NCBI RefSeq assembly: GCF_018977255.1 | Contig: NW_024704770.1 | Span: 3,100,001 to 3,164,000, forward strand | Origin: Callorhinchus milii | Lineage: Eukaryota | DNA: 64,000 nucleotides | Direction of reading: 5' to 3' | Part shown: positions 53,101-56,422 of the stretch, piece after piece | How positions within the stretch are numbered: position 1 is the first letter of the stretch | Layout of the letters: each line of letters opens with the position of its first letter | Made by a program: the position numbers and the translations under genes | Notes under the pieces: model-generated | What the model saw: the letters and a program-made list of their open reading frames with translations, nothing else | Told to the model about the DNA's origin: nothing | Database searches by the model: none

Positions 53101-55779
53101 TTCAGCCCCTCGAGCCTGTTCCACCATTCGATTAGATCTTGGACGATCTGTACCTCAACTCCAATTAATATTACAGCGATTACGAAGAACCATTTAATAT
53201 TGAAATAAGTACAATTACTAGTTCCAGGAGGAACCCCCCCGCCTGTTGATGGATAGCTTTCCTCCGCTAACTAATCCTTGATGGGCTGAGAGCCCACCCT
53301 CTTGCCTTTCCCCACTTTCCCTGGGACACAGAACGTTCCTCCCGTACCTGACAGAAAACGGGCTTTTGAACCTGGCTGAAGGCCAGCGTGAGCTGCTCCA
53401 GGTCTTTGTAATCATGCGGAAGCTTGTCCACACACAGGCACTTGGAGTGAAGCAGGTCCATGGTCAGTTGGTTGACATCTGTCCAGTGCACGTACAGGGC
53501 CCTGGTCCCCAGCTGTTTCCCCAGCAGCTCAGACTTGGCCCTGGCGGCAAAATCCTTCTTCATGTACTCCACAAAGCCGTAGCCCTTGGAGTGACCGGAC
53601 GTCTCGCTATACACCAGGAAACAGCGCTCTAGGTTCCCGAAGGGACGGACCAGCTCCTCAAACTGCTGCTGGCTGTAGGAGAGGGGCAGGTTGGCAATGC
53701 ACAGCAGGGCATCTGTGGGCTGCAGCTGGACTGAAATCTCCCGCTCCCGCAGCTCCGACTGGTGAAACTTCTCGATGGCGCTGTTGGCCTGGTCTCCGTT
53801 CAACAAGGTGACAAATGCTGGGGAGAAAGCAAAAAGGTGAATGAAGGAGTGTGAGCGATCAGCAATTCAGATGAGGCGTAAACTCCTGCCTCACTATCTG
53901 TCCGTCTACTGCTTGGACGTACAGTAAACCTCACCACATCCTGGATCCATTCACATTTTCCAGACTGAGGTGGACAGATGTTTGTTAGGTCAGGGTATCC
54001 AGGGATGTGGGGCAAGAACGGGAAATTGGAGTTGAGATACAGATCAGCCATGATCTTATAGAATAGAATGGCGGAACAGGCTCGAGGGGCTGAATGGCAG
54101 TCTCCTGCTCCTATAAGTCGTATCAGTTGGGATCATACATTTACTACGACTTATCCAAATACGAGTTATGTGAAACTTGCATAAATTGTACGGGAAATTC
54201 AATAGGACTCGGGCAGATGAACGATTTAGGTGATTATCGGATTTATACAGATCAGACTTGTGCATTCCCAGCTGCTAGACAGATCCAAAATAGGAGGGGG
54301 GGTGGGGGGGAGGGAAATCATTAGTTACGCCAGTGAGGAATCAGCTGAGATAATGTTTCTCCACAGGGCAGTGAGAATGTAAACACACTGCCACAGAGCT
54401 CAGGAGACAATTAAGATATTTGGGGAGGCAAGATTAAAAATAATAATAATCCTTGCGTTTGATGGAGCGCCTTATCACGCCGTTGAGACGTCTCAAAGCG
54501 CTTCACAGAATACATTGCAAAGTGAATTGACTGTACGGGACTGTATATTTTGTGGGCGAAACAGCAATTGTGCACAGCGGCGTCCCACATACAGTCACGG
54601 ATTGAGTGACCAAATTATTAATTTTTTTTAGTGAAGGGATTATTACCTCTGGAAACTAACAAACGGGTTCCTACTTACTGCGAGGTAACCAGAGGCGTGT
54701 GTGTGAGGTAGGGAAACTGGTCCAGCATTTGGTCCTGCACGGGAATCGAATCCGGGTCCTCTCGCTTGCGAGGCGAGGGCTCTGACCACTATGTTACAGG
54801 ACTCCGATAAACCAGGTTTGTAACTAGACAGGTGATGAACTTTAGACCCAAACCCAAAGCAGCTGAGCCTTTCCCGGCTCAGTGTTGCCGCTGCGCACAC
54901 TCACCAGTTCCTTTGTACTTGTCCACAAAGCAGTACTTTAGGTCGAATTCACCCAGAAGCTCGTGGACATCCTGCAACAGGGAAAGAGAGAGTTAACAGA
55001 GATCGCCCCCCCCCCCCTCCCCGGGGTTAGAGAGCTCCGCGTTGGGACTTTCTGGGGGAAGCTCCGTGTTGGGCCTCTGTAGCGAGTGAGCTCCGCGCTG
55101 GGCCTCTGCAGCGAGTGATCTCCGCGCTGGGCCTCAGTAGCGAGTGAGCTCCGCGCTGGGCCTCTGTAGCGAGTGAGCTCCGCGCTGGGCCTCTGTAGCG
55201 AGTGAGCTCCGCGCTGGGCCTCTGTAGCGAGTGAGCTCCGCGCTGGGCCTCTGTAGCGAGTGAGCTCCGCGCTGGGCCTCTGTAGCGAGTGAGCTCCGCG
55301 CTGGGCCTCTGTAGCGAGTGAGCTCCGCGCTGGGCCTCTGTAGAGAGTGAGCTCCGCGCTGGGCCTCTGTAGAGAGTGAGCTCCGCGCTGGGCCTCTGTA
55401 GAGAGTGAGCTCCGCGCTGGGCCTCTGTACGGAGTGAGCTCCGCGCTGGGCCTCTGCAGGGAGTGTGTGAGCTCGAGCTCCGCGCTGGGCCCCCGGTGAC
55501 CTGGTTGCTGACGTCCGGCGGCAGGTTCCTCAGCAGCAGTTTGCGCCGGTTCTTGAACTCCCGACGCGTCCGCTCCAGCCGCTGCTCGCGCTCCTCGGCC
55601 TCCAGCTCGAGCAGCACCTCCTCGGGGGCCCGGCCAGGGTCCCTCTCCAGCTCCGGGTCACTCCCCGGCTCCTCGTCGCTCTGGGCCTCGGGCACCTCCT
55701 CGGGTTCGCCATTGCCGCCATTGTCGTCGCTTTGTCGCCTCTCTGGCGCCGGCGGCTCTCCGGACACGGTGGCCGCCAT
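47148..55779 (-). CDS. RAVER1: Ribonucleoprotein PTB-binding 1 (Raver1), about 790 aa
   Basis: 14 phase-consistent exons: 55501-55779, 54905-54971, 53348-53817, 52436-52627, 51745-51907, 50995-51119, 50564-50672, 50089-50315, 49762-49846, 48868-49121, 48289-48378, 48048-48158, 47758-47811, 47148-47294. Three RRMs ([25 protein letters not shown]), PTB-binding SLLGEPP, C-terminus [12 protein letters not shown]. Confidence 0.96.
51268..51682 (-). mobile_element. Full-length tRNA-Ala(CGC)-derived SINE; best-preserved copy in the window
   Basis: Head ggagccctgtagctcagcggttagagcgctcgcctcgcaagcgagaggatctgggttcgattcccgg, central domain, and L2-like tail ending in (tta)n. Confidence 0.9.
54440..54805 (-). 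mobile_element. tRNA-Ala-derived SINE, near full length
   Basis: Same head, core and tail as 51268-51682. Confidence 0.85.
55031..55492. repeat. 29-bp tandem array in RAVER1 intron 1 (14 good and 2 degenerate copies)
   Basis: Unit gagtgagctccgcgctgggcctctgtagc. Confidence 0.95.
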
Positions 55780-55880
55780 CTTGCACTCTCTCACCGACGC
55801 CCCCGACACTCATTGGCTGCCGGGAGGGGACGGGGCCACGTGACGTCGGACCGCCCAGTAAGCCGCGCTCCGATTGGTCG
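55770..55880 (-). promoter_or_regulatory. RAVER1 core promoter: YY1 site over the ATG, CCAAT boxes, overlapping E-box/CRE
   Basis: CAAGATGGCGGCC on the minus strand at 55771-55783, attgg at 55812 and 55873, ccacgtgacgtc at 55836-55847. Confidence 0.7.
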
Positions 55881-55885
55881 CCGGT

Positions 55886-56422
55886 CACAGAGGCCCAGCG
55901 CGGAGCTCTCCCCCTCCCCCCCCCCCCACCTCTACCACACACACAGGCCCAGCGCGGAGCTCTCCCCCTCCCCCCCCCCCCCACCTCTACCACACACACA
56001 GGCCCAGCGCGGAGCTCTCCCCCTCCCCCCCCCCCCCACCTCTACCACACACACAGGCCCAGCGCGGAGCTCTCCCCCCCCCACCTCTACCACACATACA
56101 CAGGCCCAGCGCGGAGCTCTCCCCCCCCCACCTCTACCACACACACAGGCCCAGCGCGGAGCTCTCCCCCCCCCCCACCTCTACCACACACACAGGCCCA
56201 GCGCGGAGCTCTCCCCCCCCCCCACCTCTACCACACACACAGGCCCAGCGCGGAGCTCTCCCACCCCCCACCCCCACACACACAGGCCCAGCGCGGAGCT
56301 CTCCCCCCCCCCCACCTCCACCACACACACAGGCCCAGCGCGGAGCTCTCCCCCCCCCACACAGGCCCAGCGCGGAGCTCTCCCCCCCCGCCCCCCACAC
56401 AGAGGCCCAGCGCGGAGCTCAA
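55886..56422. repeat. Tandem array upstream of RAVER1, 12 copies of AGGCCCAGCGCGGAGCTC with C-rich spacers
   Basis: Copies counted directly. Period about 32-57 bp. Confidence 0.95.

Follow-up and report, generated by a model that had tools for sequence, protein, structure and literature searches.

Mirror-image minisatellites of one shared core flanking the promoter and first exon of RAVER1 in Callorhinchus milii

The closest described counterparts of the locus reported here are minisatellites such as MS32, CEB1 and MS205, which have been proposed to be by-products of local meiotic recombination (PMC2599865), and the short inverted repeats created by template switching, described in human (PMC5453318; Loytynoja and Goldman 2017) and, as templated inverted duplications of 5–34 nt, at yeast breaks (PMC11724301; Yu et al. 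2024). The locus lies in a 64,000-nt stretch of the Callorhinchus milii (elephant shark) genome (contig NW_024704770.1, positions 3,100,001–3,164,000 of the forward strand; hereafter the window), where two tandem arrays of a single 18-nt core, in opposite orientation, bracket the promoter and exon 1 of RAVER1. As in MS32, CEB1 and MS205, the tandem units are GC-rich (29–55 nt here), with graded internal variants and atypical end units; in contrast to those loci, there are two arrays of one core, oppositely oriented and 398 nt apart around a promoter, while hypervariability and hotspot activity are established only for the former. The likeness to the template-switch cases is a short (~22–26 nt) reverse-complement copy of nearby DNA, whereas here source and copy would lie ~400 nt apart and both would later have been amplified 12- to 16-fold. 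The layout is uncommon, and is best filed as a variant of promoter-proximal minisatellites. In the open-licence literature, searched by titles and abstract beginnings, there was no paper on mirror arrays at the RAVER1 locus, nor one combining minisatellite, opposite orientation, core sequence, promoter and first intron.

Counting the core on both strands of the window, with up to three mismatches, gave 28 matches, 16 on the plus strand (55032–55492) and 12 on the minus strand (55891–56420), against a mean of 0.12 and a maximum of 1 in 100 shuffles. No further match lies outside the two arrays at this threshold, and 24 of the 28 cores are exact, 12 in each array. The intron-1 minisatellite (55032–55492, entered as a minus-strand feature) consists mostly of 29-nt units with 11-nt spacers (Tandem Repeats Finder, TRF: period 29, 14 copies, 96%), its innermost and two outermost units being atypical. 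The upstream minisatellite (55891–56420, entered as a plus-strand feature) has a TRF period of ~47, start-to-start spacings of 32–55 nt, and spacers of 14–37 nt made up of a C run, ACCTCTAC and a CA run, and is G-rich on the TYK2/RAVER1 sense strand. These periods and the unit tables place both arrays among head-to-tail units of ~10–60 nt, the range of minisatellites. Read outward from the 398-nt middle, each array shows AGGCCCAG, in longer form AGGCCCAGCGCGGAGCTC. An earlier note on this DNA, made from the letters alone, had described about 16 copies with a 29-bp period and 12 reverse-complement copies, all facing away from a promoter and exon of roughly 400 bp, and was correct in counts, orientation and coordinates. 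Its suggestion of symmetry about the transcription start site needs correcting, since the centre of the pair is not the gene start. Measured from the ATG, the inner core is 287 nt away on the downstream side and 112 nt away on the upstream side, and the midpoint (55691) falls within the coding part of exon 1. A metagenome scan for the core returned 33 loci, with one copy apiece in unrelated GC-rich flanks, which were taken as chance.

Independent support for the arrangement was sought in public sequencing runs, of which four of the 24 listed were compared with the window. The kind of two of these, X1 and X2, is unrecorded, but they cover introns and intergenic DNA; "RNA-like", as used below, is a software guess, no run being on record as RNA. 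A single 552-nt contig of X1 covers 55400–55948 with no substitutions and three gaps and so links, in the orientation seen in the window, the inner copies of the left array to exon 1, the promoter and the first copy of the right array. X2 contigs at 54785–55099 and 56362–56524 represent the two outer ends of the arrays. The mirror arrays around the RAVER1 promoter and exon 1 are confirmed as real. That one of them is an assembly artefact, a possibility raised by the earlier note itself, is extremely improbable: the window does contain three N runs and long C runs, and array copy numbers come from the assembly only, with no contig among those listed spanning an array; yet the X1 and X2 contigs, which differ from the assembly by small gaps and substitutions of their own, reproduce the inner bridge and both outer junctions, and the arrays have unlike units and graded internal variants. 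Among the 15 joints listed out of 751, mostly at dispersed repeats, there was no inversion joint between the arrays and no joint skipping exon 1, a result that carries no evidential weight.

In the DNA-like runs, read depth over the intronic array is 3–25, compared with a single-copy level of ~7–10 and with 10^5–10^6 at nearby dispersed repeats. Since this is near the single-copy level and far below that of dispersed repeats, the intronic unit is not a common repeat. The X1 depth over the upstream array is raised (263 and 47), which is probably due to C-run and CA-run matches. These depths bear on a proposed mobile-element origin, in which the two arrays would be modular, inverted termini of a Foldback-type element or a miniature inverted-repeat transposable element (MITE), or else copies of a dispersed satellite. 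Foldback elements carry mirror arrays of one short subrepeat around a central segment, a likeness that speaks for a transposon. Here, however, the centre is the host's own working promoter and conserved exon 1, at single-copy depth (5–7 in X1), and no direct repeat of 4–9 nt occurs within 11 nt of both outer ends, duplications of 2–3 nt having been judged by eye. The low depth of the intronic array likewise argues against a dispersed element, although a bare 18-mer elsewhere would escape the depth test, and the 64 kb contain no other copy of the core. A transposon or satellite origin is very unlikely on this evidence, and the common dispersed repeat or MITE end that the earlier note had named as a possible undoing of its idea did not emerge from the target-site, depth or window searches.

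Sequence common to both arms continues beyond the core. ACAG stands directly before 11 of the 16 left cores and before the first and last of the 12 right cores, the ten internal right copies carrying ACAC in its place, and the exact inverted match between the arms is 22 nt (ACAG plus core). It is extended by GGTCAC, found just inside both innermost cores (P 0.033 for anywhere within 14 nt, 0.011 in register); a short exact reverse-complement copy of nearby DNA, the mark of a template switch, is thus present as 22 nt plus this word. On the left, GGTCAC lies at the exon 1/intron 1 junction (55496–55501, minus strand), where the intron starts at 55500 with GT and an RNA-like contig (X6 record 17) departs from the genome, and it is likely to be the inner end of the seed. 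On the right, GGTCACAG (55883–55890, plus strand) immediately precedes the first upstream core, and is the mirror of the splice-junction word followed by the left-type ACAG. A further word, CTCTAC, occurs in most spacers of the right array and, on the left, in the three inner regular ones. The description of the spacers as entirely different accordingly goes too far, as ACAG, GGTCAC and CTCTAC occur on both sides. Exon 1 itself contains a near-copy of the core start at 55677–55689 (12 of 13 matching, in left-array orientation); the match is borderline, 13 of 200 resamples having matched equally well, and it could be an older seed.

We consider it probable that the pair is a by-product of an inverted templated copy, in which ~26 nt from the exon-1/intron-1 junction was copied once, reversed, to the far side of the promoter, followed by separate tandem growth on each side. 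The copy would have been made by a polymerase template switch during replication or break repair. With all six core changes confined to the left array, that array is probably the older, and the copy would have run from intron to promoter, in keeping also with the left-type ACAG retained by the first and last copies on the right. The right unit may have gained its own period through growth of the C and CA runs, which would slip much faster than the complex core, and any effect on expression would be secondary. The idea that one motif was amplified separately on each side, already put forward in the earlier note, is supported. Meiotic breaks at the CpG-island promoter may have driven turnover, if the species directs recombination to promoters, and such breaks could account for the transfer of the seed as well as for array expansion on the two flanks. 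In PMC5519329, the elephant-shark PRDM9 is described as partial and not fast-evolving, and it is the sole one whose expression was not detected; more recombination at promoters and CpG islands is reported there for species in which PRDM9 is absent or partial. Should promoter-directed recombination build such pairs, it would tie the growth of repeats at promoters to a loss of functional PRDM9. As a by-product, the locus would be a clear natural record of a minisatellite seed jumping a promoter in reverse and founding a second array. It would also caution against taking divergent spacers around a conserved core as a sure sign of selection.

Several observations weigh against an inverted copy followed by separate growth. 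The growth of the same seed on both sides is not accounted for by the copy event alone, and, of the 820 array pairs in the window, only this one shares a complex word throughout. Template switches, as described in the accessible text of PMC5453318 and PMC11724301, lie near their source, and no figure for a 400-nt reach is given there. The CTCTAC link is weak (P 0.04–0.05 with the inner type of left spacer, but 0.5 with the common one). In the right array, ~7 substitutions were counted by eye in the spacers and none in the cores (P 0.03, or 0.07 when both arrays are pooled), and 55 of the 56 core CpGs are intact, the single loss being near the outer edge. Comparison with other arrays of the window was also uneven, a third control (60.2 kb) having only 4/7 identical cores and a fourth yielding two cores.

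Four of the six core changes are in the two outermost left copies, and events in the left array (six in core, five in spacer) are proportional to length (P 0.76). The intact core CpGs mean youth, lack of methylation, conversion or selection. Two control arrays, at 39.2 kb and 34.1 kb, have identical cores in 30 of 38 and six of seven copies, and distinct spacers in 34 of 37 and five of six, respectively; as these unrelated arrays of the window also show a constant core with variable C/CA spacers, a constant core alone is no proof of selection. The former is a 1-kb minisatellite (39222–40277) with C and CA run spacers, whose constant 12-nt core comes from a dispersed repeat with six other copies in the window, and in the latter (34099–34482) a 22-nt GC-rich core is repeated seven times between C/CA spacers that vary. 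Tandem repeats make up 16% of the window, which contains 41 minisatellites.

Selection is the essence of another explanation, in which the arrays are clusters of activator sites for ZFX/ZNF711-type zinc-finger proteins, or for another factor reading the core, that flank the CpG-island promoter and raise or buffer RAVER1 transcription. Mouse Zfy2 fingers bind AGGCCY in vitro, with GGCCT as the motif from ChIP-exo (PMC7293018), and around human starts the motif shows symmetric enrichment at ±240 nt, with larger peaks where there are more copies (PMC5848610); both points count in favour of such sites. The start of the core, AGGCCCAG, matches AGGCCTAG at seven of eight bases, and of 56 one-mismatch matches to the latter in the window, 25 are within the arrays and two more in exon 1. 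The minimal GGCCT/AGGCCY word occurs 14 times in the left and 12 times in the right array, at a promoter of the CpG-island type (CpG observed/expected 0.99 in the middle), and the right-array cores are unchanged. The resemblance to known ZFX/ZFY/ZNF711 sites (PMC5848610, PMC7293018) lies in AGGCC-containing words that flank a CpG-island promoter, with many of them in exon 1 and intron 1, but known sites are scattered, peaking at ±240 nt, whereas those seen here are a tandem 7/8 variant inside a longer shared word. Neither exact AGGCCTAG nor the strong 6-nt consensus AGGCCT occurs in either array, the 7/8 variant being present in 25 cores. The motif spans at most 8 of the 18–22 shared nt, the inner cores are asymmetric about the ATG, and the promoter has CCAAT, E-box and CRE-like (cAMP response element-like) words of its own. 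Moreover, randomized 2-kb CpG-island promoter regions all contain ZFX motifs, which are neither required nor sufficient for binding (PMC7293018). Selected clusters of this kind are in our judgement unlikely, and the orientation-dependent ZFX/ZNF711 site proposed earlier is not supported. Such motifs occur in most CpG-island promoters (PMC5848610, PMC7293018); ZFX-type binding to the core as a side effect is plausible from the sequence. If such factors do bind the arrays, one could ask directly at this locus whether the output of a CpG-island promoter depends on how many motifs there are and on which side, upstream or downstream, they lie, a point left open in the available text of PMC5848610 and PMC7293018.

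A minisatellite of CTCF sites was considered and rejected, none of the 176 matches in the window (up to three mismatches to the consensus) falling in either array. One of the four one-mismatch matches in the window lies at 56673–56686, in the interval that separates the upstream array from the TYK2 poly(A) words, and each core of the 34099–34482 array is a three-mismatch match, at background level.

Composition, as opposed to a specific word, might be what matters, with the arrays extending or guarding an unmethylated CpG island, and the upstream G-rich strand pausing TYK2-derived polymerase and so insulating the RAVER1 promoter. In keeping with this, nearly all core CpGs are intact, the window-wide CpG observed/expected of 0.55 is exceeded in the left array (0.80) and in the middle (0.99), and the right array contains, on the TYK2 sense strand and 540 nt past the candidate poly(A) signals, five G-quadruplex-like stretches and three G5AG5 words, a type of word with a role in termination. 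However, G5AG5 is common (23 in the window), young repeats likewise keep their CpGs, the right array lowers CpG observed/expected (0.50, compared with 1.03 in the DNA beyond), and the same 18-mer on both sides is not required. An action through composition is, on balance, decidedly improbable. A bolder scheme joins several of these elements into a self-templating mirror repeat, in which PRDM9-independent breaks at a promoter hotspot would copy a ZFX-like seed across the promoter and conversion between the inverted arms would keep the cores identical, building a symmetric, tunable activator platform at a housekeeping promoter, with a G-rich upstream half that stops TYK2 read-through; we hold this to be improbable.

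The earlier note had also envisaged a fold-back, whereby the arrays pair in TYK2 read-through RNA, looping out RAVER1 exon 1 or forming double-stranded RNA. It is energetically possible: sense-strand folding of 55020–56430 pairs right with left cores around exon 1 at −878 kcal/mol, a figure without shuffle control at such length. Folded on its own, the intronic array is no more stable than its shuffled versions (z −0.37). A transcript containing both arrays is, however, needed, and the RAVER1 pre-mRNA excludes the upstream array unless started beyond it. In the RNA-like contig X6 record 17, exons 1, 2 and 3 are joined in the normal way. TYK2 RNA-like contigs from two studies run no farther than 56962 and 56978, close to the poly(A) words and ~540 nt short of the upstream array, where DNA-like contigs continue to 56567; this is a weak hint against read-through. 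The candidate TYK2 polyadenylation signals, on the minus strand, are AATAAA at 56959–56964 and ATTAAA at 56985–56990. No RNA-like contig among those listed lies between 55750 and 56962, and the contigs are uninformative on starts, strand and divergent transcription. A partial predicted emperor-penguin gene model (P0061), in which TYK2 is fused to RAVER1 from the start of exon 3, speaks for read-through but may be an annotation error; with the same caution, it suggests a TYK2–RAVER1 neighbourhood in birds. The fold-back has, all told, very little probability.

The two genes, RAVER1 and TYK2, were correctly named in the earlier note. The coding part of RAVER1 exon 1 (55501–55779, minus strand) has 93 codons and starts MAATVS, as in shark and ray RAVER1, and its end matches human Raver1. 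Exon 3 matches the RRMs of human Raver1 (E 4.5e-75) and is 85–89% identical to RAVER1 of sharks and rays (elasmobranchs), while exon 2 (54905–54971, minus strand) is 67 nt long and fits 66 otherwise unplaced letters of X6 record 17. The kinase exon upstream, on the same strand as RAVER1, has TYK2 as its best match. The promoter and 5' untranslated region (55780–55882, minus strand) are CpG-rich, and contain two CCAAT words (55816 and 55877) together with an E-box and a CRE-like word (55837–55846). The exon-1 donor (55495–55503) reads CAG|GTCACC, unlike the usual consensus past the GT, and is followed directly by a G run and then the array, for which a role as an intronic enhancer is possible.

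Several smaller features were observed in the surrounding DNA. An Rfam search of 54500–57500 gave no match to the arrays, the sole match being tRNA-like (54730–54803, RF00005, 37.6 bits), in a very high-depth repeat of RAVER1 intron 2, where it is probably the head of a short interspersed nuclear element (SINE). Farther out on either side of exon 1, 59-nt fragments of a very high-copy dispersed repeat form an inverted pair (54441–54499 and 57379–57437, 85%). Another CpG-rich gene start, on the minus strand with its ATG near 44414, also has a minisatellite upstream (44531–44619), of 3.8 copies of a 24-nt unit, each containing a GC-box-like word.

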